From an uncultured Clostridia bacterium (GTDB lineage Bacteria > Bacillota > Clostridia > Christensenellales > UBA1242), in contig CAMEKS010000001.1 of assembly GCA_945921465.1 (NCBI GenBank), positions 2,745 through 66,744 of the forward strand: 64,000 bases of DNA. Reading direction: 5' to 3'. The notes beneath the pieces were generated by a model, which saw only the letters and a list, made by a program, of their open reading frames with translations, was not told the origin of the DNA and did no database searches. How positions within the stretch are numbered: position 1 is the first letter of the stretch; each line of letters starts with the position of its first letter. Below are positions 1-46,738 of this stretch, one piece after another. The position numbers and the translations under genes are program-made.

Positions 1-2377
1 ATCCTTCATTGCAAACAATTTCAACTTGGTCGCCAATATTTACACCTGTTGAAATAAGATCTTGAATTTGTTTATCCGTAAGTGAAGTTCCGTTTATTGC
101 AACTTTGCTAAAGTACCTGTTTTCTAACTCAATTTTTGCAGTTAGTTCAGCGTCAGCATTTGCTCCAGTAATATGTTTGGTAGCAATAGTACACTCATAG
201 TTTTTCGTGTCTAATTCGGTTGACAATTTCCATACCAAATCTTCGCTGCCATCAAAATAAACATCAAATGTTAATGGAATATCTATATCACCATACTTGG
301 CGTTGCCTGCAGTTGTTTTAAGTTCATAATCTCCCCATACAATTTGTGTGATTGTTGGTAGGGTTATTGTTAAGTCTCCTTCAGCAAGTGTTTTTGGTGT
401 AATTGTATACCAAATATAAGTATTATAATCATAATTTACACCATTCATATCAAAATAGTAATTTGTGTTTGTTAGAGTTGCGGTAGCGGCGTAAGAGCCA
501 TCAATTACATTAATCGCGCTATTATTAAAGGAAAGTGAATAATCTGTTCCTTTAATTAAATTTACATCTTTATTACTTAGTTTTGCGGCAACAGAAATTA
601 GATTGCCATCTGGAACAACTGGATTGCCGGTATATTCAAAACTTGTAGAACCAGTATAACTTAAAGTTGCTTGTGCTGGTGCTATTTCAACATGTCCATA
701 ACTAACAGCCCAAGTATTATCCGTATTGCCATAGAACATATAATTATTTACATCATTTAAGGTAAACTCTGCACGATAATAATATGTTCCTGCATTTTGT
801 AAAATTGTCGGAGATGTATAGGTATAATCGGTATAAGCCTTATATTCCAAACCTGCCAATTTAAGGATGTCGCTATTGCTAGGAATGTCTAAGGTAACAA
901 ATTCTTGTTCTTCTCCGTTATAAGTAAGGGACGAAATGTTTGTGTTCCAATTAAAATTATAATCTGATGTATAGATAACTTGTTTATCAATTGTAAATGA
1001 GCCTATATACGTTCCTGTATAGTTGCCAATACCCGTTATAGTGTAACTTGCATTGCCGGCATTTGTATTATTAGAATATACAATTGTGTAATCATTGTCT
1101 TTGACTAATACAATATTATTGTAATTCACATAACAATATACCGATCCTTGTAGAAATTGTTCACTTCCGTTGTAAGTATAAACTTGGCTATCTACTTGAA
1201 TTCTATTGGATATGCTTACAGGGCTAATAGTAAAGGATACTTCTATTGTGCCTGTATAATTGCCTGTGCCAACTATTTCAAATTTACCAGTTGTATTAGA
1301 TGTAGAAGCATTTGTGTTATCAATATTTACGCCAGATAACATATTGATGTTATAAGTTATGTCTTGCGACAAATTTGTTAAAATATATGCAATATCGCTT
1401 GCGGTGTAAGCATCATTCTTATATTTTACATCAATGTCAGCTATAGAGCTGCTGATGTTAAGAGTATTTATATCTAATTGTTCTATTACTACTGTAAATG
1501 TCTTGTCTGCTACAGGCATATAGCCGTATTCAACTTCGAAATGTGCGGTCGCTGTGTAAGTGCCAGCATCTTCAATCCAAGAATAAGAATCAAGTTGGCC
1601 GTCTTTTTGGAAAGTGTAACTTATATTGCGTATACCCACCAAAGAAGAAATATCTACGTCATCAACAATATCGTTGCTATGTGTTTGGCCATCATAGGCA
1701 ATAGTATAAGTATCCTTAAAGGTTGGCACATCAATATTCTTGCCTACAATATCAAAATAGAATAATGCACCTCCAGAATAAATTCCTTGTCCGCCACACT
1801 GAATAAATCCCTCACCTGTGCCAGTTGCCGAATTATATCCAGTAATTGTATAATCCAAAGTGTAGTCTGTATCTTTTACAAGAGCTGTCTCATTATTATA
1901 AATAAATGTAACACCTGAAAAATCATATATGCCTTCTGACGAATAAGTGTAATTTTCTCTAAGTCCCGAAATAGTTAAGTTATTCGCATCTAATTCGATA
2001 GGGGATATGGTTAAGTATAGACTAAACGAAAGTTCTTCATAGCCAAAGTCCAATCTATAATTACCTGGCAATAATTCGGTTGCTAATGTTTCAGACTCGC
2101 CCAACTTATAAATCTCTAATGAATAACCAGAATCAATAGTATTAGAACTGCCATCATCATACTTAAGCAGTAGAGTAAAATCGTTTGAGGCAAATGTCAG
2201 ATTTTCATCATATGTAATGTCTACCCCAAGTTCAAAATCATATATGCTATTTTTGTGGGACGCCTCAATAGCAATAAGTTTTGGCTCACCGTCGCCGCCT
2301 CCACAAGCAGTCAAGCAAGTCGCACCAGTCAAAACAAGAAAAAGAGTAACAATAAAATTTAATATTTTGTTTTTCAT
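1..2377 (-). CDS. Surface lipoprotein with repeated MBG-like modules; N-terminus complete, C-terminus runs off the left window edge
   Basis: Absent from the ORF track because it is open-ended. My reverse-strand translation from ATG 2377-2375 (AAGGAG 6 nt upstream) gives MKNKILNFIVTLFLVLTGATCLTACGGGDGEPK... with no stop down to position 1. Lipobox L-T-A-C. Later repeats of the type QVYTYNGSEQ...DYTIVYSNNTNAGNASYTITGIGNYTGTYIGSFTI. Confidence 0.8.
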   Translation of the reverse strand, partial: MKNKILNFIVTLFLVLTGATCLTACGGGDGEPKLIAIEASHKNSIYDFELGVDITYDENLTFASNDFTLLLKYDDGSSNTIDSGYSLEIYKLGESETLATELLPGNYRLDFGYEELSFSLYLTISPIELDANNLTISGLRENYTYSSEGIYDFSGVTFIYNNETALVKDTDYTLDYTITGYNSATGTGEGFIQCGGQGIYSGGALFYFDIVGKNIDVPTFKDTYTIAYDGQTHSNDIVDDVDISSLVGIRNISYTFQKDGQLDSYSWIEDAGTYTATAHFEVEYGYMPVADKTFTVVIEQLDINTLNISSSIADIDVKYKNDAYTASDIAYILTNLSQDITYNINMLSGVNIDNTNASTSNTTGKFEIVGTGNYTGTIEVSFTISPVSISNRIQVDSQVYTYNGSEQFLQGSVYCYVNYNNIVLVKDNDYTIVYSNNTNAGNASYTITGIGNYTGTYIGSFTIDKQVIYTSDYNFNWNTNISSLTYNGEEQEFVTLDIPSNSDILKLAGLEYKAYTDYTYTSPTILQNAGTYYYRAEFTLNDVNNYMFYGNTDNTWAVSYGHVEIAPAQATLSYTGSTSFEYTGNPVVPDGNLISVAAKLSNKDVNLIKGTDYSLSFNNSAINVIDGSYAATATLTNTNYYFDMNGVNYDYNTYIWYTITPKTLAEGDLTITLPTITQIVWGDYELKTTAGNAKYGDIDIPLTFDVYFDGSEDLVWKLSTELDTKNYECTIATKHITGANADAELTAKIELENRYFSKVAINGTSLTDKQIQDLISTGVNIGDQVEIVCNEG

Positions 2378-2809
2378 AAAAAACTCCTTATTAATTATTT
2401 TTGTTATTATTTCAATTGTGTTGTAATATTGGGCAATCATTAATATGTTTTATATGATTATATTTTAACATATTGTTAATAAGACAACAAACCAATTTGC
2501 AATTATAATCATTATATTGGGCTTAAGTTGCAATGGTTTATGCCTATAGCAAACAAGGATAAAATAATTTAATTACACAAATGTGTTGGCCTTTACCTTT
2601 TAGTTAATTTAATCAAAGGACCGCAAATGTGGCATATCTCACTAAAAGCTTTTATGGCACTAATAAGCCAAATATGTGTTTTTATTAATATATCAACCAT
2701 TTATTACAAAAGTGGCGACGTCGACACCAATTAACAGTTTTGCTCTAATAGTTGCTGTAGATGGATACATCAGCCACATTGTATTAAGAACTGCTAAATT
2801 AAATATAAA

Positions 2810-3496
2810 TCATCTATTAAAGGTAAATAAATATTTTAGTATTTCAAAGAAAGTATTTTTGCCTTCGGGAATAATAATTTTTACTACTCCAATTATATCG
2901 GTTGTTTTATATCCGCCTTGCATTTTGCTGTCTATAGAGTTAATTCGGTTGTCTCCAAGGGCGAAGACTGTGCCGTCGGGTACAATGTAATTGCCGTCAG
3001 AATCTATTTGGTCAGGGAAGTCTCTATATAGCGTGGCAAGCGGGTTATAACCACTTGGATCGGCGGTGCAGATATAATAGTTCTTTTTCAAGTTTTCCAT
3101 TAATTTAGCGGGAGTGATTATTTCTTTGGTGTATTCTTCTGTTACCGGCTCATTATTAATGAACAAAACATAACTTTCCGATACATTATCATACTGATAT
3201 CTAACCCTGTCACCGGCAATTGCGACGACTCGTTTGATAATTCCATTGTCGCCATTGCCAATCACGACTATGTCTCCCACGACAGGCGTGGCTGTGCGGT
3301 CATAATATACAATGTCGTGCTCTGTCGCCCCATTGGGGTTGAGGGTTGGCTGCATACTAATATCGTATACGGTCGAAGACGAGAAAAAAACAACAAACAA
3401 AACTACCCATACTGTTATGCTATAAACAATAGCGTCCAATACTTTGCTTTGCCAGTTAATTGTATTGTCGAGTTTTACATCGCAATAACATCTCAT
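2810..3496 (-). CDS. lepB: Signal peptidase I (S26 family)
   Basis: Has an N-terminal TM helix, the catalytic region DISMQPTL and the box GDNRINSIDS. The track ORF begins at TTG 3523, but AAGGAG-N6-ATG favours ATG 3496 (MRCYCDVK...). Confidence 0.85.
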   Translation of the reverse strand: MRCYCDVKLDNTINWQSKVLDAIVYSITVWVVLFVVFFSSSTVYDISMQPTLNPNGATEHDIVYYDRTATPVVGDIVVIGNGDNGIIKRVVAIAGDRVRYQYDNVSESYVLFINNEPVTEEYTKEIITPAKLMENLKKNYYICTADPSGYNPLATLYRDFPDQIDSDGNYIVPDGTVFALGDNRINSIDSKMQGGYKTTDIIGVVKIIIPEGKNTFFEILKYLFTFNR

Positions 3497-3563: not shown

Positions 3564-4553
3564 CTATATCAAGTCAAAAATTTTTTGGATAGTAGATTTG
3601 ATTTCGTCTATTCTGTCTGATATATTAACTTCATTAAGAATAGTATATCTATTTATCCTTGGCTGCAAATTTCTAGCAACATCCAAGATTATTTCTTTGG
3701 TTATTTTGAATTTTGGAAACATCTTGTAATATCCCAAACGATTAAAAATGTTAAGCAGAGTAGTAATATCTCGCTTCTGCAATGTTAACCCAATCAGTAT
3801 ACCTATAGCTACAGCAATTCCATGAGGGACGCTAATCAGTGTTTCCAATTTTTTTGCAAATATATGTGATACTCCGCTACAAGCCCTACTGCAGCCCATA
3901 GCAATTGTTAGATCGCCCGTTACCCCCAAATTATTATACAACAAATCTATGTTGTTAAATTGGTTGGCGGTGTTGCTAAGATATTCAATGGTTAAATTAA
4001 GAGTTTTGGTGGCTAATTCTAATGCTGGCTTATTAATTACTTCGTTATTGTTTTTGCAAGCAATTTGCCAATCATATAGGGCGGTTTCCATGGCCAAAAT
4101 ATCTGCATAACCCAAAAGATTATATTGTGCTTTTGTCGCAAGATATTCTTTGTCTAGCAATATTTTGTCTGGCTCTGCGCAATCAACGGTTACCTCAGTT
4201 CCGTCTTTTAACAAAACACCTTTGTTAGTCGCAAAAGAGTTGTTAGACAATACAGTGGGCACGGTAGCATACGGAACATCTAGCATTTTTGCTATATATT
4301 TAGCAATGTCTATAGCGGCCCCGCCACCCATTCCATAAACATATTTGCAGTCTTGATATATATCAATAATATTGATGTATGCGTTATAATTTTTGCCTAT
4401 CTCTGATATAGGTGTCGATATAATTTTAGAGTTGGTTAACTTGCACATTATATCCGACTGCAATACATCGTCAAATATTAGCAAAACTTTACGAGTTTCT
4501 GCATTTAAGTATTTGACGATATCACATTCTATTGTTTTATTAACATATCCCAT
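3564..4553 (-). CDS. Iron-containing alcohol dehydrogenase superfamily protein, glycerol / glycerol-1-phosphate dehydrogenase-like
   Basis: Glycine-rich NAD motif GMGGGAAIDIAKYIA, then VPTVLSNNSFATN, and late His residues (SHIFAKK...VPHGIAVAIG) as in the GldA/AraM/EgsA family. RBS AAGAGGAAG. Substrate cannot be assigned from sequence. Confidence 0.6.
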   Translation of the reverse strand: MGYVNKTIECDIVKYLNAETRKVLLIFDDVLQSDIMCKLTNSKIISTPISEIGKNYNAYINIIDIYQDCKYVYGMGGGAAIDIAKYIAKMLDVPYATVPTVLSNNSFATNKGVLLKDGTEVTVDCAEPDKILLDKEYLATKAQYNLLGYADILAMETALYDWQIACKNNNEVINKPALELATKTLNLTIEYLSNTANQFNNIDLLYNNLGVTGDLTIAMGCSRACSGVSHIFAKKLETLISVPHGIAVAIGILIGLTLQKRDITTLLNIFNRLGYYKMFPKFKITKEIILDVARNLQPRINRYTILNEVNISDRIDEIKSTIQKIFDLI

Positions 4554-36880: not shown

Positions 36881-39800
36881 ATGTCAACTGCTACTATTGT
36901 TAATATTGCTTTGACGGGAGTTGTTGGGCTATTTGTGCTAGTGGGTGCCATTGTAGGTGCCGTTAGAGGTGTTAAGAAAACACTAGTGCGAGGTGTATGG
37001 CTAGGAATATGGACGGTCATATTGGTGTTGTTTCTATCCGGAATAATAACCAACCTAATAATGAATATTAAGTTTACTGCCAATGTTGGTGGCGTAGAAT
37101 GTACCGGAATCAAAGAAATAGTTACAGAACTAATAATGGCTAGTGGGGTAGATATGTCTAGCTTGGGTGAAAATGCGGATGCTGTTATCCAGGTTATTGT
37201 GGGCTATACAGACATAATACTAAATTCGGTTGTGTTTGTACTGTTATTCTGGTTACTAAAGTGGCTGCTGTTACCTATCAATGCATTAATTTATCGTGTA
37301 CTTCCTTGGGGTAAGGCGGAGCGAAAATATAAAAAAGAAAAGAAAGCGTATGATAAGTATGTAAAGGAATATAAGAAATTACACAAGGGCGAAATCCCAG
37401 TCGAGGCAATGGGATTTGCCGACCTTAGCGATGATGAGAAGATACTTGCTGGAAAAATAAGTGAGATTAAGCAGAAGACGGCTTTGGATAGCCTAAGAGA
37501 AGCAAGGGCGTCGATAGAAAATAACGAAAAAATTATTAAGAACGAGAAGTTGGGGCTAGATATCGACAAGTCGGCTGTGGTGCAAGAAAACATCAAGGAA
37601 GAAAATAATAAAACTGAAGAAACCTTTATACCAAAAGAAGAGTATCAGCCAAAACAAGAAGAAGTAGTAGACTTGACTCCGGTAACAAAACCAAAAAAAT
37701 TAAAAAAACATAGACTGCTGGGTATGTTGGTTGGTGGCGTAATGGGAATATTCATTGGTGCTATTACTTTGTCACCTGCCTTGGGCATATTATCTCTAGC
37801 AAATGACATCAACTCTAATAACGAGATAGAATTAGAGGACGGGACCAAGAAGGGCTTGGTGGATTATCTGACTCAAGATATGTTCAGCCAAATCAATGAA
37901 TATTATGAAGATTCTATAGGCTCTAAGGCCCTTACATATACCGGCGGAGAGTGGGTGGCTACGGCCACTTTTGGGGCATTGACTCGTGGAAAAGTAGATG
38001 GACAAGTTGCAGATCTTGCCGAGGATGCTAAGAATATAGTAGCGATAGCGTCATTGGTTAATACGATAACCGACCAAGTCAAGGAATTAGAAGAGAGCAA
38101 TTATCAGCCCGATGTTTTACGAAAAATAATTAAAAATATAGACAAGATTATAGATTATGCATTTAATATTAGCGTAGTCAACGTGTTAGCACCATATACT
38201 ATGCAGATTCTGGCCGACGAGATAGAAAAAACAGCGAACGACAACACGACTGCTTTGGCAGAAAATGAGAATTCTACTGAGGCAAATGACGATATTAATA
38301 AAATATTGGTCAAGTTCGCCCAAACTGTAGCGACATTTGAAGACGCAAGTACAATTAAGAGCGAATTAAAATCTTTTATTAAGATAGTAGAGATGCTTAA
38401 TTATGGTGTAAATATCAATACAATCGATGGCGTTAGATCAACATCATTGCTGTCCGAAATATTGAAGTCTAGCGACAATTCCAAGAATTCAGAAGTGACC
38501 AGAACTATTCAAAAATTGAATTACGAATATTATACAACCAACCAAAAGATGTACTTTACCTCATTAATAGAGAAGTGTTATAGCGTAGATGGTTACGAGA
38601 CTAAGGCTGTGCCAGAGGTTATGCCAATGGGCATAGAAGTGGTGCTTAAGGCTTTGCTGCAAGAAGCAGGAGTGACCAATGCGGGTGAAATATTAGCAGG
38701 CGATTCTAAAGAAACTGTAAAAAATTTCTTGATGTCAACATTTAACGAAGTATTTGCGGTTCTGCTAGAACTTAATACTGGCTACGATGCTAATAACAAT
38801 ATGGTGTATATAGAGTATGAGACCGAAGACGACTGGGGCAACATTACATTGGGCAAGATTAGCAAAAATATGTTTACATCTTTGGGTAAAATACTTGACA
38901 ACATCGCTGGATTGGTTAATGAAGAAGTGTACAAAGATGCTATTGCATCAGTTGCAAAGAACCTTAATAATATAGCAACCGAAGGGCTGAAAGAAATGAT
39001 GGGCGAAGATCCTGCGTCTAAGGTCGGCGCTAATCTTGAATCAGCGCTTAATGCTTTGACCGGCGAAGGTGCGTTCGCCAAAGAATTGACTGCAGTTGGC
39101 GAAGTATATCAAACAATCTTTAACAACAATGGACTATTTAAGGGCGAATTTGCACTCAACGACAAAGACAATTGGCAATGGCAAATTAATAATCTTTCGG
39201 CACTTGGCAACGCATTAGATGCTTTACAAGAGACAACTCTTTTGGGATATGTCAATACAGGAGACAAATACAACACCATTAATATTATATTCACCGCAAT
39301 GCTAGATAAGGTTAAAACTGATATGGTTGACACAAATAGTTTATCGCTAGATTTGAACGGATACATTGAGTCTCCTTCAGTTATGGAGCATGCTGTATAT
39401 AATATTATCAATCTAATAAATTATAACATTTCTAATCAATGTATCAACGGCAAAGTTGATTGGAGTAACACATTTGATAAGTGCGCCAAGGCTATAGGTG
39501 TGATTACTGACATAATTAATGCCGAAAAAACAGACGATGTTGACTCTATAGATATGGTGTTAGAAATCTTAGGCAAGCATACCTCTATCGAGCTGGATGG
39601 AAATGCCAATGAAGTAATCAAGGGTGCCTTAGATGAGATTAATATTACTAGTAACACAATCTTCACTGGATTGGTTAGTCGCGTGTTGACCGACTTCAGA
39701 TCGGTGTTAAATTCGCAAATCTCAGCAGCAGATAATAAGCAGGTAAATACAATTATTAATGCATTGTTTGATACATTGTCAGGGGTTGGCACTAGTACAA

Positions 39801-41881
39801 AACCAAGGAACACTTATCAGTATCACCTTAATACACTAAAAGAAGTTTATGATTATATTACTAACGAAGAATACGGACTTGGTGGATTAGATAACATCGA
39901 ATTCGATACCAAAGATTTGGGTAAGTTGGGAGAATTGTTAAATATTATAACCAAAAGCAATTCTAACGAAACCGATGCAATTCCGCTAGTAAGCAATAGC
40001 ACTATTTGTGAAATTATTGCAGACATTATGCAAGAACAATTAATTGATGGAAGCAACGGAATAGAGTCTATGATATCCGACTCAGATATTAGCGGTGCTA
40101 TGAAAGATTTTGTAACAACATTAATTGCTAATATACGCAATAGCGTTCCATTCAGATACACCCCAACCAACGGATGGGTAGGCGTAACAGAGGCATTGAG
40201 TTATATTATTAACAATTGTCTAGATGGCGGTAATATAGATTTTGCTGATACAGATGCCACATCTACCATAATTGGCAAAATGATGGATGTGCTATCTGGC
40301 AAGGACTTTGTGATAGGAACTGGGGCAGATGCCAAGACTTATAACGCTAAGTTTGTAGAGCCAAAAGATGTCAAACTGCTGTTGGGTAAAATTATTGCTA
40401 AGAAGATGTCTAATATGTCAATTGATGCAAAAATCAAAGATGCTATAATGGGAGCAACATTTAGCTTAGCCAGTGATACAACATACAATATCTATGCCAA
40501 GGCAATTAATCTATATGTTTATGGCGAAGCTGAGACAACTAAGGACATATTTAACGACAATAAGGTGTCACTTGTCAATGTCGAAGGCCAGACATATACT
40601 CTTAACGGAATATGTGATAAAATATTCAATTTTAACAACAACGCCTATAGTTGGGAAGTTGCGTTAAAGACGCTGCTTAATTTAACCAATACAAACTTTG
40701 CAAGTGCAGGTTTGGGCAACTTTAGTAATATTAATCACACTTATTATAGTGCAGATACTGTCGAAATCAGCGGATTTGGAGAAACATTAGATAATATATT
40801 AATCAATCAATGGGAAATGGCAGAGAGTGTCAACATTATCACTTTGGATCAAATCAAATATATAATGAGTTCGACGATTGCAAATGAATTAGAAGATGTA
40901 ACTGACACTGATGTTAGGGGTGCTCTTGATACAATCGTTAACAACATCAACAAAATTACAGAATCAGAAGTTAAGGCTACACTTAAGACGGTCGCCAATG
41001 ATTGGACCGGTGCGTATTTCGATACTCAGACTAAGGCAATGCAATATGCAATAGATATCCTTAATGGCTACACTAGCGCAACCGACCAAGACGCATATAT
41101 TGCAGACTTGGGAGTATATCTAGACGAAATAGATAAGGTTGTTTTAACTAATGGGTTAGGCAAGACATTTACTATCACCATTCTTAATAAAATAGGCAAT
41201 GACGAAGATTCTGATAGTATTGCAACTACCATTAACACAGCAGTGGCCAAGTTGCGAGGCGAAGAAAGTGTTACAAAAGTATTCTTGCAAAACAATAATG
41301 ACAGAGTTAACAATTTGTATAATGGCAAAAATAACGAAGAAGTATACGCTTTGTTAAGCGAATTGAAGAGCACATTAAATGGAATTACATTCAGTAATTT
41401 TGAATTAACGTTGGGTGGAGAAACTACCATCTCTTCTGATAAATACAATGAAATGCGTAACAATTTGGTGAACATTTCTATAACTATTCAGCAGTTGCAA
41501 AGCAACCCAATAGTTGGTGCAAAAGATGCTAGATATATAGCAATTGCAGTAATAAATAAGTTGGTTACTAGTATGGACAATTTGATTACTTCAGTTAACT
41601 ATTCTAATAATGTCAATAGAGCATATGGGCACAAAACTGGAACAACAGCAGATGGATATAAGCAATATTTGATTGATAGAATAGCGGTGACTGATGAGGA
41701 AGAAGAATATGCGACACTAGTCGCAGGCTCTACTACTGATTATGAAGTGCCATATTATGTTGATAATAATGGTGATTCTAATGTAGAAACTGCAGAATAT
41801 GCTTATCTATATCAAACTCAAAAGTATATAATAGTCTACTTATTAGATGATTATTATAATTTAATAACAAAATCAAATTAA
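36881..41881 (+). CDS. Giant (1666 aa) membrane protein: CvpA-like N-terminal TM region, K/E-rich coiled segment, another TM helix, then about 1350 aa of helical sequence of unknown function
   Basis: N-terminal helices (IVNIALTGVVGLFVLVGAIVGAV..., WLGIWTVILVLFLSGII..., VVFVLLFWLLKWLLLP), a charged segment at residues 150-270, and a TM helix LLGMLVGGVMGIFIGAITL. The rest has no motif I recognise. Confidence 0.7.
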   Translation: MSTATIVNIALTGVVGLFVLVGAIVGAVRGVKKTLVRGVWLGIWTVILVLFLSGIITNLIMNIKFTANVGGVECTGIKEIVTELIMASGVDMSSLGENADAVIQVIVGYTDIILNSVVFVLLFWLLKWLLLPINALIYRVLPWGKAERKYKKEKKAYDKYVKEYKKLHKGEIPVEAMGFADLSDDEKILAGKISEIKQKTALDSLREARASIENNEKIIKNEKLGLDIDKSAVVQENIKEENNKTEETFIPKEEYQPKQEEVVDLTPVTKPKKLKKHRLLGMLVGGVMGIFIGAITLSPALGILSLANDINSNNEIELEDGTKKGLVDYLTQDMFSQINEYYEDSIGSKALTYTGGEWVATATFGALTRGKVDGQVADLAEDAKNIVAIASLVNTITDQVKELEESNYQPDVLRKIIKNIDKIIDYAFNISVVNVLAPYTMQILADEIEKTANDNTTALAENENSTEANDDINKILVKFAQTVATFEDASTIKSELKSFIKIVEMLNYGVNINTIDGVRSTSLLSEILKSSDNSKNSEVTRTIQKLNYEYYTTNQKMYFTSLIEKCYSVDGYETKAVPEVMPMGIEVVLKALLQEAGVTNAGEILAGDSKETVKNFLMSTFNEVFAVLLELNTGYDANNNMVYIEYETEDDWGNITLGKISKNMFTSLGKILDNIAGLVNEEVYKDAIASVAKNLNNIATEGLKEMMGEDPASKVGANLESALNALTGEGAFAKELTAVGEVYQTIFNNNGLFKGEFALNDKDNWQWQINNLSALGNALDALQETTLLGYVNTGDKYNTINIIFTAMLDKVKTDMVDTNSLSLDLNGYIESPSVMEHAVYNIINLINYNISNQCINGKVDWSNTFDKCAKAIGVITDIINAEKTDDVDSIDMVLEILGKHTSIELDGNANEVIKGALDEINITSNTIFTGLVSRVLTDFRSVLNSQISAADNKQVNTIINALFDTLSGVGTSTKPRNTYQYHLNTLKEVYDYITNEEYGLGGLDNIEFDTKDLGKLGELLNIITKSNSNETDAIPLVSNSTICEIIADIMQEQLIDGSNGIESMISDSDISGAMKDFVTTLIANIRNSVPFRYTPTNGWVGVTEALSYIINNCLDGGNIDFADTDATSTIIGKMMDVLSGKDFVIGTGADAKTYNAKFVEPKDVKLLLGKIIAKKMSNMSIDAKIKDAIMGATFSLASDTTYNIYAKAINLYVYGEAETTKDIFNDNKVSLVNVEGQTYTLNGICDKIFNFNNNAYSWEVALKTLLNLTNTNFASAGLGNFSNINHTYYSADTVEISGFGETLDNILINQWEMAESVNIITLDQIKYIMSSTIANELEDVTDTDVRGALDTIVNNINKITESEVKATLKTVANDWTGAYFDTQTKAMQYAIDILNGYTSATDQDAYIADLGVYLDEIDKVVLTNGLGKTFTITILNKIGNDEDSDSIATTINTAVAKLRGEESVTKVFLQNNNDRVNNLYNGKNNEEVYALLSELKSTLNGITFSNFELTLGGETTISSDKYNEMRNNLVNISITIQQLQSNPIVGAKDARYIAIAVINKLVTSMDNLITSVNYSNNVNRAYGHKTGTTADGYKQYLIDRIAVTDEEEEYATLVAGSTTDYEVPYYVDNNGDSNVETAEYAYLYQTQKYIIVYLLDDYYNLITKSN

Positions 41882-42840: not shown

Positions 42841-43197
42841 CTAGAACATTCCTGCAGGAAGTCCACTATTTCCTTTTAATTTCTTTTCTAATTCATCAGC
42901 TTTTGCAATAGCCTCATTAACAGCAGCCGTAATCATATCTTCTAACATCTCAGCATCGTCTGGGTCTATTGCGGCAGGGTTAATCTTGATACCAGTTATC
43001 TTCTTGTTGCCCAGTATAGATACCTCTACCATACCTCCACCCGAAGTCGCAGTCAAAGTTGTGGCTGCTAATTCTTCATCGGCCGCCTTAATTTTTTCTT
43101 CCATATCAGCCTGCATTTTCTGTGCCTGTTTCATTAGATTCTGTATGTTCATATTGCCACCACCGAATCCACCCATTCCTGGTCTAAACATAATCAT
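42841..43197 (-). CDS. ybaB: Nucleoid-associated protein YbaB/EbfC
   Basis: NIQNLMKQAQKMQADMEE...TATSGGGMVEVSILGNKKITGIKINP is typical of the family. It sits in the conserved dnaX-ybaB-recR order. Confidence 0.9.
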   Translation of the reverse strand: MIMFRPGMGGFGGGNMNIQNLMKQAQKMQADMEEKIKAADEELAATTLTATSGGGMVEVSILGNKKITGIKINPAAIDPDDAEMLEDMITAAVNEAIAKADELEKKLKGNSGLPAGMF

Positions 43198-43415: not shown

Positions 43416-44027
43416 CTACTCTACAATCTTAACAAGGTCTCCCAATTCAGCGCGAAGTTTACGCACGTTTGCTTCTCTAATTTCGTCACTCTTGTCTTCT
43501 AATAATTGTACACTAAGTACAAGGTTGCAGTCAATTTCTTTAAGGGTTGTAACGATAAAATCATTTATGTTTTTTGACAAAATATCTTCATAGTTTGATA
43601 TTTGGTCACAAACAATTCTAAATTCATTGCCTGCTATATCATATGATTTGATATTAGATATAATAGCAAAAAGCAAACTGTTGCCACTCTTCCTAGCGTT
43701 CTTCATTAGATTGCCAATTATCATATCTTTTGATAAGGATTTGCCCTTAGGGAGATTGCTATTGGTTGTTGGACCACTGCCAAATACATCAGTAATATTA
43801 TTGCTGGCAGTTGTGTTAAATTGTCTTTGCGAGACCATCTTGTCGTTGGCGATGGTGCCATAGTTAACGTCTAACGCAATGTTTTCGCCGCCGCTTGTAT
43901 TTTTGTCTAATTGTGTGTCTGCAATACTATGACAAACTTCCGTACGATTAATGCCATTATCTCTGTGCGAGATTTTTGTTTTTTGGCCGTATTCATCCCA
44001 ATTATCAATGTTGTCGACACCGAGCAT
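43416..44027 (-). CDS. dnaX: DnaX (tau) C-terminal region-like ORF (variable low-complexity segment plus a conserved C-terminal domain), in the +1 frame relative to dnaX
   Basis: 203-aa ORF directly after dnaX, with no RBS in front of its ATG. Its frame stays open upstream to 44108 and overlaps the dnaX 3' end. Low-complexity N/S/T/G region, then LLFAIISNIKSYDIAGNEFRIVCDQ...IVTTLKEI, laid out like tau domains IV-V. Assignment rests on position and architecture only. Confidence 0.5.
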   Translation of the reverse strand: MLGVDNIDNWDEYGQKTKISHRDNGINRTEVCHSIADTQLDKNTSGGENIALDVNYGTIANDKMVSQRQFNTTASNNITDVFGSGPTTNSNLPKGKSLSKDMIIGNLMKNARKSGNSLLFAIISNIKSYDIAGNEFRIVCDQISNYEDILSKNINDFIVTTLKEIDCNLVLSVQLLEDKSDEIREANVRKLRAELGDLVKIVE

Positions 44028-44076
44028 AGGGTTATTGTCAACAACCTCTATAGTTTTGGCAGAGATGTTTTTGGCT

Positions 44077-45234
44077 TTAGGGACAGTCTCCTGATATAAT
44101 TTTTGACTCTAGTGCTTTGATTCGTTGTTCTAGTTTTTCTATTCGGTCTTCGTCGTTCAGCAAACCTAATACATTGATTTCGAACAAAGCACGGGAATCG
44201 GTTGTGTATCTAAATTCTTGTTCGAGACTAGATAACCTAGACATTATCTTAATTAATATCGCGTTATCGCAAGACTGTGCAATTGCTTGGCAACGCGAGT
44301 AGATATCGTCTGGCATAGACAGTAAAGATTGAGCATTATTGCAGTTTTTGATAATACTGATGTCTCTGACAAAATTAACCAAATCACGATTAAGTTGTCC
44401 AAAGTTTTTGCCTTTGTCTGCAAGTGCCTTAAGGTATGATAGCAAATTCGTACAGTCTCTAGTTATTATATATTCGCATATTGTGGCAAGTGCGTCTTTG
44501 CTTGTTATACCTGTTATCTCTGTAACTGAATCATATGTAATATTATTGTTAGAGAATGTAATACAAGATTCAGCGATGGACAGTGTATCTCTGACGCTTC
44601 CTTCACCAAGAGATGCAATTAATTTTAAGGCTTCTTCTTCGTATTTTACACCTACTTGGTCGAATATTTTTTGCAATTGACCAACTAATGTCTCAATGCT
44701 GACTAATTTGAAATCAAATCTAATGCAGCGGCTAAGTATGGTCTGTGGCAATTTGTGTACTTCGGTAGTTGCGAGTATGAACACCACATATGTTGGTGGC
44801 TCTTCTAATGTCTTAAGTAGGGCGTTAAAAGCACTCTCAGATAGCATATGAACTTCGTCAATAATATATACTTTGTACTTAGATATAGTTGGTGGATAGA
44901 TTACCGACTCCTTAATATCTCTAATATTATCTACTCCATTATTAGATGCGGCATCTATTTCTATTATATCTAAATTGTCTGGATTATTAAGTGCAATGCA
45001 TGCAGGACATTTGCCACAAGCAATACCATTTTGGGGTTCGGTGCAGTTGATTGCTTTGGCGAATATCTTAGCAATACTAGTTTTGCCAGTTCCTCTAGTG
45101 CCAGAGAAAAGATATGCGTGCGATATCTGATTGCTAACAATTTGATTCTTTAGCGTGGTTACGATATGGTCTTGTCCGATTACCTCATCAAATGTTTTGG
45201 GTCGAAATCTTCGATATAGTGCTTGATGTTCCAT
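44077..45234 (-). CDS. dnaX: DNA polymerase III subunit gamma/tau, domains I-III (terminates early relative to typical tau)
   Basis: Walker A GTRGTGKTS, zinc module CGKCPACIAL, Walker B IIDEVHML and sensor SRC (TILSRCIRFDF). Start at Met19 (MEHQALYRRFRPKTFDEV). Confidence 0.92.
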   Translation of the reverse strand: MEHQALYRRFRPKTFDEVIGQDHIVTTLKNQIVSNQISHAYLFSGTRGTGKTSIAKIFAKAINCTEPQNGIACGKCPACIALNNPDNLDIIEIDAASNNGVDNIRDIKESVIYPPTISKYKVYIIDEVHMLSESAFNALLKTLEEPPTYVVFILATTEVHKLPQTILSRCIRFDFKLVSIETLVGQLQKIFDQVGVKYEEEALKLIASLGEGSVRDTLSIAESCITFSNNNITYDSVTEITGITSKDALATICEYIITRDCTNLLSYLKALADKGKNFGQLNRDLVNFVRDISIIKNCNNAQSLLSMPDDIYSRCQAIAQSCDNAILIKIMSRLSSLEQEFRYTTDSRALFEINVLGLLNDEDRIEKLEQRIKALESKIISGDCP

Positions 45235-45284: not shown

Positions 45285-45881
45285 TCACAAATCTATTTTT
45301 GTTTTTATTCTTGCTACTGCATTCTCTACACTCTTAATATTAATATGCAGAGTTTCTGCAATCTCTTTGTTATTGCATCCGCTTATTTTAAGCTTAAGAA
45401 TATCAAATTCCATATCGCTTAATTTTAGTCCCAACTCTCTTAAAGTATAGGATAGACTCTCTTCGTCTATCAATTCCGACTCTGGTGTTTTAGTGTTAAA
45501 TTCATAAGGTACTGTCATAGTATCACCATTGTCTCCGGTCATTTCCACTTCGCCTTGATTGTTAAGTGGTAATGTATTGCTATTAATCTTTTGCTTTTGG
45601 GTATTTAGCTTTTTAAGATAGTTAATTAATTCATTATCTATTATATGATTGACAAATGTGTCAAATGAAGCATTGCGTCTATCGTTGTAGGCAAGTATTC
45701 CTTTGTATACTGCCAGTCTACCACACTGCAATAATTCTTGATAATCGTCGCTATAATAGAAATAGCCTTTTGCCTTAACCTTTTGCTCGATTATATTCTC
45801 ATACGTTTTTATTATTTGGTTACAAGCATACGTATCGCCATCTTTTGCGGCTTGCAACATAGATTTGTCGATGTCTATCAT
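45285..45881 (-). CDS. sigH: Sigma-70 family RNA polymerase sigma factor, SigH-like by synteny
   Basis: Region 2-like N-terminus (YENIIEQKVKAKGYFY...LLQCGRLAVYKGILAY) and a region 4 HTH (LSDMEFDILKLKISGCNNKEIAETLHINIKSVENAVARIK). It lies downstream of mrnC-rlmB, as in Bacillus. Confidence 0.65.
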   Translation of the reverse strand: MIDIDKSMLQAAKDGDTYACNQIIKTYENIIEQKVKAKGYFYYSDDYQELLQCGRLAVYKGILAYNDRRNASFDTFVNHIIDNELINYLKKLNTQKQKINSNTLPLNNQGEVEMTGDNGDTMTVPYEFNTKTPESELIDEESLSYTLRELGLKLSDMEFDILKLKISGCNNKEIAETLHINIKSVENAVARIKTKIDL

Positions 45882-46006
45882 CTTGTCCCTTTTTATAATT
45901 AATGATTTTTATCAATATTAATTTTTGTCTATATAGTGTTTGTTGCACAATTATATATTGTTTGTCATATCTATCGTTGTTTCTGACAATAACCATATGC
46001 CAATTG

Positions 46007-46738
46007 TCATTTGTTGTTTTTCTTAGTAAATATCGTATTGATTGCTATGCCAGTTGCGACAGATGCATTAAGTGAATTGATATGACCACACATAGGTATA
46101 GATACACGCTTGTCACATAATTTCAGCGTCAACGCCGATGTGCCGAAACCTTCTGAACCAATAACTAATGCAACACCGCCGCCAAAGTCGGTCTTATTGA
46201 TATCTTCTCCGCCCAATTCGCAGCCATATACCCAGATATTGTGTTGTTTTAATTCTTCAATTGTTTGATTAATATTGGTTACCTTGGCCACCTTGACATA
46301 TGCAGTAGCCCCTGCCGAAGTTTTGATAACTGTTTCGTTAACATTGCAGGCACGATTCTTGCCAATTATTATTCCATCTACACCAAAGCATTCGCAAACT
46401 CTTATTATACTACCAAGATTGTGTGGGTCTTCTATTCCGTCTAGTATCAATATAAATGGGTCGGTGCCTTTAGACTTGGATACTGCTAGGATTTCTGGCA
46501 ATGTAGCATAGTCATAATCGGCAGTCTCTGCTATAATGCCTTGGTGCTTGCCAGTTTTACTAGTTCGGTCTAGTGTAGAATTGTCTACCCATTGCAATTT
46601 TATTCGCTTAGATTTTGCCAAGTCAATTATTTCTTGGAAAGTGTTGTCGTGAGTTGACTTGCTTGCCAATATTTTTTCAATTTTTTCTCCATTGCGCAGA
46701 GCTTCTCGCACTGCATTCCTACCCTCTATTAGTAGCAT
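46007..46738 (-). CDS. rlmB: TrmH/SpoU-family 23S rRNA 2'-O-methyltransferase (RlmB-like)
   Basis: N-terminal substrate-binding domain IEGRNAVREAL and SpoU motifs (LDGIEDPHNLGSIIR, LVIGSEGFG, SLNASVATGI). Confidence 0.85.
   Translation of the reverse strand: MLLIEGRNAVREALRNGEKIEKILASKSTHDNTFQEIIDLAKSKRIKLQWVDNSTLDRTSKTGKHQGIIAETADYDYATLPEILAVSKSKGTDPFILILDGIEDPHNLGSIIRVCECFGVDGIIIGKNRACNVNETVIKTSAGATAYVKVAKVTNINQTIEELKQHNIWVYGCELGGEDINKTDFGGGVALVIGSEGFGTSALTLKLCDKRVSIPMCGHINSLNASVATGIAINTIFTKKNNK

Follow-up and report, generated by a model that had tools for sequence, protein, structure and literature searches.

A probable prfB-like +1 ribosomal frameshift at a conserved CCC-stop junction in dnaX of uncultured gut Clostridia

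Two bacterial genes provide the closest described precedents for the locus reported here. Escherichia coli dnaX makes the gamma clamp-loader subunit through a –1 frameshift at A_AAA_AAG, assisted by a Shine-Dalgarno (SD) sequence and a hairpin, and prfB, the gene of release factor 2 (RF2), carries a +1 site laid out as an SD sequence, 3 nucleotides (nt) and CUU UGA C. Here we analyze dnaX in a 64,000-nt stretch of an uncultured Clostridia genome (GCA_945921465.1, contig CAMEKS010000001.1, positions 2,745 to 66,744 of the forward strand; hereinafter the window), whose closest named records are 'Clostridia bacterium' and Christensenellales metagenome-assembled genomes from animal guts. The gene is interrupted at two-thirds of its length by a stop codon that directly follows a CCC proline codon, and comparison with related lineages makes it very probable that its decoding involves a programmed +1 ribosomal frameshift of the prfB-like 'shifty stop' kind.

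Recoding of dnaX, a textbook example, and +1 shifting at CCC-stop sites are each known. Thermus dnaX uses transcriptional slippage at an A9 run (PMC3711429, PMC5009743), and a 'two-ORF' dnaX type (ORF, open reading frame) that makes tau via a –1 or poly-A event was described by Antonov et al. (2013, PMC3711429), all 17 genes of that cluster being –1 at the DNA level and 12 having poly-A runs (PMC3711429). CCC_UGA and CCC_UAA +1 sites occur in the Listeria phages PSA, A118 and A500 (tsh), in phages Q54 and SPP1 and in some antizymes (PMC3082878, PMC5009743), so the premise of the original prediction for this locus, that CCC followed by a stop is prone to +1 shifts, is documented. Full-text literature searches returned no report of a +1 frameshift in dnaX, and the combination is, as far as we found, previously unreported.

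The dnaX gene of the window starts at ATG 45234 on the minus strand, with an AGGAG ribosome-binding site in front, and its 3′ end reads TGT CCC TAA. The elements of the locus are the following.

44077..45234, minus strand: dnaX zero-frame ORF, 385 amino acids (aa), domains I-III, TAA included; candidate gamma-like termination product
44109..44111, minus strand: TAG closing the +1 frame upstream of the junction, which sets the overlap window
44088..44092, minus strand: internal SD-like AGGAG, proposed 5′ stimulator, 5 nt before CCC
44080..44082, minus strand: CCC proline codon, proposed slip site, invariant in 10/10 lineages
44077..44079, minus strand: zero-frame stop TAA directly after CCC ('shifty stop')
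43416..44078, minus strand: +1-frame continuation, 220 codons and a TAG stop; variable linker, then the putative tau C-terminal domain
44025..44027, minus strand: first ATG of the +1 ORF, 17 codons past the junction; gene-caller start and rival initiation site
43419..43748, minus strand: conserved domain of about 110 aa at the C-terminus, with homology to the corresponding domain of uninterrupted DnaX/tau

From 44108 the +1 frame runs without interruption to its stop at 43418-43416, a total of 230 codons, of which 220 lie past the junction. Because TAG 44111-44109 closes this frame, a shift must fall within 44108-44079, the 10 codons over which both frames are open. Conceptual omission of the T of TAA gives a 605-aa protein that reads ...ISGDCP-KAKNISAK... 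across the junction. No SD sequence lies at a normal distance before ATG 44027, the closest GAGG being 17 nt upstream. The original prediction thus described the locus accurately: the split of dnaX at TAA 44079-44077 has the coordinates it gave, frame translation confirms that the +1 frame is open back to 44108 and closed by TAG 44111-44109, AGGAG (44092-44088) can be read directly 5 nt from the CCC-stop, the downstream ORF lacks a ribosome-binding site, and the tau expected after slippage, about 600 aa, is matched by the conceptual 605-aa product.

The zero-frame product is the N-terminal clamp-loader module of DnaX, comprising the AAA+ domains I-II and domain III. It matches the Pfam models PF13177, PF22608 and PF12169 (DNA_pol3_delta2, DNAX_ATPase_lid and DNA_pol3_gamma3), TIGR02397 at 454 bits (cut-off 250) and NF004046 at 517 bits (cut-off 400). 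Since NF004046 is covered only at positions 2-386 of 567, the final third of a normal Firmicute DnaX is missing from this product.

The proline codon before the stop is a rare one in the window, where CCC makes up 45 of 432 proline codons (about 10%) in the long ORFs, and dnaX alone among the 35 ORFs of at least 150 aa (counted from the first ATG) ends in CCC-stop. The short motif GGWG-N5-CCC-TRA, seen once against 0.13 expected and equalled in 13 of 100 shuffles, is not beyond chance when taken within the window alone; what makes the site significant is the length of the +1 ORF, the homology of this ORF to DnaX C-termini and the conservation of the junction in relatives. The window was also searched for prfB and tRNA-Pro genes and contains neither, its sole tRNA gene being one for tRNA-Gln. 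In a genome with no GGG-anticodon tRNA, CCC would fall to the UGG isoacceptor, which is prone to shifting (PMC4519876).

We compared the junction across relatives represented by metagenome-assembled genomes, using sequence only. A metagenome scan with an alignment of the last 125 DnaX residues matched 203 stretches, none of which was confirmed, and a genome scan with DnaX motifs found poly-A and other sister types together with L002, one clade member among the matches listed; relatives were then fetched protein by protein. In this way DNA was obtained for ten distinct lineages with 55-72% DnaX identity, the window and its independent assembly L001 counted as one. Their junctions read, in zero-frame codons up to the stop and with the base after it:

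window and L001: GGA GAC TGT CCC TAA A
L002: GGA GAG TGC CCC TAA G
L082: GGA GAG TAT CCC TAA G
L092: GGA GAG CAT CCC TAA G
L093: GGG GTG CAT CCC TAA G
L094: TTG GTG TTA CCC TGA A
L096: TCG GTG TTA CCC TAA C
L100: TTG GTG AAT CCC TAA C
L101: CAG GTG AAT CCC TGA A
L102: CTG GTG CTT CCC TAA C

CCC stands directly before the stop in all ten (TAA in eight, TGA in two, TAG in none), and the continuation lies in the +1 frame in all ten as well. Nine loci contain it to its end, and there it measures 119-220 codons; the contig of L100 ends 52 codons into the continuation. The surroundings of this fixed core vary freely: the preceding codon is TGT, TGC, TAT, CAT, TTA, AAT or CTT, the base after the stop is A, G or C, and the linker of the +1 ORF is highly variable in length and sequence while the frame relation stays constant. 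At 55-70% protein identity, synonymous sites are effectively randomized. In L100 and L101 the overlap window is just 2 codons (AAT CCC), which pins the shift to CCC. At the protein level, 26 of the best 120 DnaX clusters end in proline at the junction position; 12 clusters of 69-72% identity, 382-385 aa long, end in ...G[ED/V][CYH]P, and 13 further clusters of 54-57% identity end in ...[LV][LN]P or similar.

The same alignment speaks to how the continuation could be translated. In L002 there is no ATG, GTG or TTG in the +1 ORF before codon 82, which already lies inside the conserved domain, so that the +1 ORF of this lineage is not independently translatable. Elsewhere the first start codons lie 6 to 82 codons past the junction, at positions that are not conserved and mostly without an SD sequence; the 236 codons that separate the junctions from the first start codons, summed over the lineages, include no stop. 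Conservation of the junction in relatives had been set as a test by the original prediction, and the outcome is favorable in every lineage, with CCC-stop and the +1 frame in 10/10 and a GGAG or GGUG element upstream in all.

This G-rich element occurs in two forms. Clade A, which includes the window, carries GGAG at –9 to –6 relative to CCC (GGA GAS), and clade B carries GGUG at –7 to –4 (NNG GTG), built from an unusual G-ending codon (TTG, TCG, CAG or CTG), synonymous or not, with GTG after it; L093 (GGGGTG) holds both. As the G-ending codons for Leu, Ser and Gln all preserve GGUG, selection acts on the nucleotides and not on the amino acids. In our own alignment to the 3′ end of E. coli/Bacillus 16S rRNA, the source of the anti-SD used throughout, GGAG and GGUG lie next to each other within the full complement AAGGAGGUGAUC, in which they are offset by 3 nt, and the pairing registers of the two clades with the rRNA tail would differ by only 1 nt. 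We infer that the element acts through rRNA pairing. A putative SD-like stimulator 5′ of the shift codon, as in prfB-type sites, is thus conserved. On the 3′ side, we folded the 60 nt that follow the stop in each of the ten lineages and found no stability beyond that of shuffled sequences (z-scores –1.7 to +1.0; 0 kcal/mol for the L002 fold), and a hairpin or pseudoknot stimulator was rejected on this basis.

The +1 ORF carries, by homology, the tau C-terminal domain of DnaX. Aligned with hhalign, its domain alignment (A3) matches an alignment (A4) built from the last 110 residues of uninterrupted DnaX proteins (14 sequences of 494-599 aa, all from related Clostridia) with 99.5% probability and an expect value (E) of 1.4e-22 over 108 columns, nearly the whole domain; a BLASTP comparison of the downstream ORF with residues 432-510 of the uninterrupted protein P0072 gives E 9e-6. 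The description of this ORF as tau C-terminus-like, made from its architecture, is thereby placed on homology to the uninterrupted domain. Searches of the +1 ORF against Pfam and NCBIfam matched no model. Its last ~110 residues are conserved across lineages with 55-70% DnaX identity. An AlphaFold model of the domain has a mean predicted local distance difference test score (pLDDT) of 81 and shows a small alpha/beta domain; Foldseek against the PDB gave weak matches, none at E<=0.001, the top ones being DnaA domain I (4tps; target-normalized template modelling (TM) score 0.66-0.71), DciA (8a3v) and E. coli tau C-terminal chains (5fku_E, 2aya). The resemblance of the modelled domain to DnaA domain I or to the tau chains is only suggestive.

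In an exhaustive HMMER search of 1.84 billion representatives, homologues of the +1 ORF were short stand-alone ORF calls only (74-169 aa; 9 further proteins), and word-index homologue searches, a profile search among them, returned the ORF itself or 15 short ORFs only. The called homologues P0139, P0144 and P0145 begin inside the conserved domain. P0125, P0126, P0127 and P0129 are calls that start upstream of the junction and read ...[IV]PK[KR]..., the +1-frame translation of nnT/nnC CCC TAA R, which suggests that the site is shared by four more lineages. In P0018, an uninterrupted relative (L098, gene 2001-3491), the same spot (around 3130-3160) reads GGG AGT TGT CCC CAG ATA in frame and encodes a ...GSCP motif; this fused gene keeps GGGAG-TTGT-CCC, so that the SD-like element and CCC also occur without a split.

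The junction is present in independent data. The 385-aa DnaX and a 203-aa downstream ORF are on record from two assemblies, and an independent NCBI assembly (GCA_019973165.1, contig JAIFIH010000878.1; L001) has the identical junction, with 99.97% identity over 6 kb and only one single-nucleotide polymorphism and one intergenic A-run indel between the two. The polymorphism lies at window position 46136, within a SpoU-type methylase gene, and the indel (A-run 5 vs 6) at 45905, between that gene and a sigma-like gene. P0005, a 385-aa relative with 71% identity, is encoded identically on 24 contigs from different samples. A sequencing or assembly indel, in which an extra C in the C-run splits one true ORF, would account for the fact that removing one C restores exactly the same 605-aa protein, but the same junction recurs in the independent assembly, on the 24 contigs of P0005 and in 10 divergent lineages from different studies and assemblers, and three C in a row do not make a homopolymer that is prone to error. 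These records exclude the indel alternative named in the original prediction, and we give it practically no weight.

We therefore consider how a shifty stop would operate here. A ribosome reaching the site would hold peptidyl-tRNA-Pro on CCC in the P site, with UAA in the A site. Termination would be slow relative to sense decoding, and AGGAG, paired with the 16S rRNA tail a few nt behind the P site, would favor forward movement; tRNA-Pro could then re-pair from CCC to the overlapping CCU, after which AAA (Lys) would be read next and 220 more codons translated. Termination would yield a 385-aa gamma-like clamp-loader subunit with domains I-III, and slippage a 605-aa tau, to which the linker and the C-terminal domain are added. 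The tau C-terminal domain binds the polymerase in other bacteria.

Several observations agree with the shifty-stop decoding. The P-site codon can re-pair in the +1 frame before the stop (CCC UAA to CCU) in 10/10 lineages, and the +1 frame holds the remainder of the protein, which the relatives indicate is not expressible alone, the window itself having an ATG. The anatomy of the sequence, its conservation and the homology of both parts to one uninterrupted DnaX are observed directly, and from them we infer actual ribosomal shifting at the site. The prfB-type reading put forward in the original prediction is accordingly supported by the conserved CCC-stop, the +1 frame, GGAG/GGUG and the DnaX C-terminal homology, and with it, through the same comparative data, the proposal that termination would produce a gamma-like protein and slippage tau.

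The serious rival is a true split gene with independent initiation, since sister clades do exactly this: two polypeptides would be made, the second from ATG 44027 or by translational coupling, and the CCC-stop would be incidental. In L104 and L097, stops in all frames separate dnaX from the C-terminal ORF, which begins with a GTG or ATG of its own, the L104 start following AGGTGA; gene callers annotate two genes in every relative, and L082 has GGAG 6 nt before a TTG at codon 8. Such a split nevertheless leaves unexplained the invariant rare CCC, the constant +1 overlap and the retention of GGUG by G-ending codons. CCC accounts for 4-18% of proline codons in the relatives' loci, and although the product of these fractions, ~1e-10, inflates independence because the lineages are related, the split-gene account offers no reason for the invariance. 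Independent initiation fails in at least one lineage, L002, with no possible start for 82 codons; the first starts in the others are non-conserved and mostly without an SD sequence, calls such as P0139, P0144 and P0145 begin inside the domain, and ATG 44027 itself has no SD sequence at normal spacing. We regard a split gene as unlikely in the clade that carries the junction.

Besides the relatedness of the lineages, four points weigh against the frameshift. The window genome does have an ATG 17 codons past the junction; the sister clades L097 and L104 encode the same C-terminal domain as a separate gene, so a stand-alone C-terminal domain may be viable; the SD-like pairing would, by the alignment above, lie 1-2 nt further upstream of the P site than in E. 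coli prfB; and CCC_UGA alone generally gives <=2% frameshifting in E. coli (PMC3082878), whereas far higher levels would be required for an essential tau. With 5′ stimulators, CCC_UGA reaches up to 15-60% (PMC3082878). In view of the low efficiency of the bare site, GGAG/GGUG would have to make a substantial contribution if much tau is needed.

Two further explanations concern the fate of the +1 ORF or of its transcript. Recent pseudogenization, with decay of the tau C-terminus leaving the +1 ORF as an unexpressed remnant, would suit the very divergent linker and the failure of Pfam and NCBIfam models to match the ORF. A dead remnant would gather stops and frame changes, however, whereas every one of the nine lineages with a contig extending to the end of the +1 ORF keeps it open, over 119-220 codons, and the last ~110 residues are conserved and still DnaX-like; an ORF intact and conserved wherever the contig reaches its end excludes this alternative, to which we assign a negligible probability. 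Transcriptional slippage, with RNA polymerase dropping one C or realigning at the site, requires homopolymers of about 7-9 or more, but the site offers no more than CCC (CCCC in L002), and the A-runs on either side are just 5 long; the conserved adjacent stop and the SD-like element are, moreover, hallmarks of a ribosomal mechanism. That Thermus and poly-A-type dnaX genes use transcriptional realignment (PMC3711429, PMC5009743) and that neighboring clades carry A9-A10 runs lends this explanation some appeal, yet it remains very improbable for the present site.

Other decodings of the junction were tried and rejected. Stop-codon readthrough would meet TGA in the zero frame 12 codons later, and the –1 frame closes after 9 codons. 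The signals of classical dnaX –1 recoding, A_AAA_AAG with a 3′ hairpin or an A-run of at least 7, are absent, with A-runs near the junction of 5 at most.

Sister clades resolve the same boundary in other ways. Eight loci with 48-54% DnaX identity (L007, L015, L020, L022, L023, L028, L029 and L047) carry an A9-A10 run with a stop within two codons, usually ending in ...AAAAAAAAAC TAA; the dnaX match starts near locus position 3001 and the stop lies near 4090-4100, and a –1-frame ORF of 108-174 codons then encodes the tau C-terminal domain. With this classical –1/poly-A arrangement, the eight loci belong to the poly-A 'two-ORF' type that Antonov et al. (2013) described for dnaX. The presence of poly-A and CCC-stop types in related lineages therefore points to different recoding solutions at the same domain boundary. 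In L097 (3647-4032) and L104 (3144-3519), the domain is a separate gene with its own ATG/GTG, and stops close all frames leading from dnaX, which ends in ...KLNK TAG in L097 and ...KLK TAG in L104. More widely, a clade of many clusters at about 56% identity, with DnaX ending in ...KLNK, ...KLK or ...KVNR, has the tau C-terminal domain as a separate 121-aa gene. In L016 (4090-4620; 49% identity), dnaX ends ATT TTT CCC AGA TAA and shares 22 codons with a 158-codon +1 ORF; since CCC does not directly precede the stop here, this may be a different +1 site, CCC_AGA or a T-run.

The neighborhood of the gene is conserved as well. In the window, dnaX is followed by ybaB (42841-43197) and then recR, the usual dnaX-ybaB-recR order, and preceded directly by a small sigma-70-like gene (45285-45881, minus strand). 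Each relative fetched from these clades (L082-L104) likewise has a sigma-like gene of 182-198 aa immediately upstream of dnaX, with Sigma70_r2 in all and usually Sigma70_r4_2 and/or GerE matches, and genes for a mini-RNase III and a SpoU methylase precede it in most loci, giving the conserved block RNase III - SpoU - sigma - dnaX - (tau C-terminal ORF) - ybaB - recR. Beside recR, and convergent with it, the window has a 1666-aa ORF (36881-41881, plus strand) with no Pfam match on record; relatives have ORFs of 1686-2031 aa, likewise without Pfam matches, similarly placed beside the gene cluster.

It is possible, though we hold it to be doubtful, that a whole clade of uncultured, Christensenellales-like gut Clostridia makes the essential tau only by efficient +1 frameshifting at SD-N(3-5)-CCC-UAA. 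If so, these bacteria would have a cellular housekeeping gene under obligatory prfB-style +1 recoding. Since tRNA-Pro would face a choice between termination and slippage, the proportion of gamma to tau, and with it the composition of the replisome, would depend on release-factor activity and on the supply and modification of tRNA-Pro, coupling replication to the condition of the translation machinery. In this group, the dnaX domain III/IV boundary would also be a hotspot at which fused, split, –1/poly-A and +1/CCC-stop forms have replaced one another. Caulobacter makes its gamma/tau pair by proteolysis, and the mechanism proposed here would add another independent route to the pair, strengthening the case that having both products is selected. 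It would also bring a core replication gene onto the very short list of bacterial chromosomal genes with +1 programmed frameshifts.

Annotation is affected directly. Gene calls in these genomes present dnaX as a truncated gene accompanied by a hypothetical protein, and a pipeline aware of no exceptions besides the prfB-type and –1 dnaX ones will go on mis-calling such genes. The natural variants of the site (GGAG or GGUG, UAA or UGA, different E-site codons, fused or split genes) also offer material on how 5′ rRNA pairing and stop identity bear on +1 efficiency in Firmicutes.

Set beside prfB, the dnaX site shares an in-frame stop in the A site right after a re-pairable P-site codon and an SD-like sequence a few nt upstream; neither needs a 3′ structure, and in both the frameshift product is the full-length functional protein, which for dnaX would be tau. 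The slip codon is CUU (Leu) in prfB and CCC (Pro) here, the stop UGA there and mostly UAA here. The prfB site lies at codon 26, whereas that of dnaX is two-thirds into the gene, and prfB termination leaves a short peptide where dnaX would release a complete, functional gamma-like module. Because DnaX is no release factor, no direct feedback of the prfB autoregulatory kind is expected and none is obvious; by analogy, sensitivity of the dnaX site to the RF1/RF2 level is plausible.

The CCC-stop sites of Firmicute phages have an identical slip site, in low-GC hosts where CCC is rare, and there too a fraction of ribosomes adds a C-terminal module. Those sites belong to phage structural genes or, in eukaryotes, to antizyme, as opposed to a core chromosomal replication gene; the present site differs from them also in its conserved 5′ SD-like element, with no 3′ pseudoknot or hairpin detected.

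Other cases of dnaX recoding involve the same gene and the same domain III/IV boundary and give a short and a long product sharing their N-terminus. The original prediction called the present layout the reverse of that in E. coli; the layout itself is the one we propose, but it is not new, having been described for –1/poly-A dnaX (PMC3711429), and in the two-ORF genes of 2013, as proposed here, the short product comes from the zero frame and tau requires recoding. What separates the present site from known dnaX recoding is the event itself, which is –1 at an A-run or heptamer in those genes and would be +1 at CCC-stop in this one.

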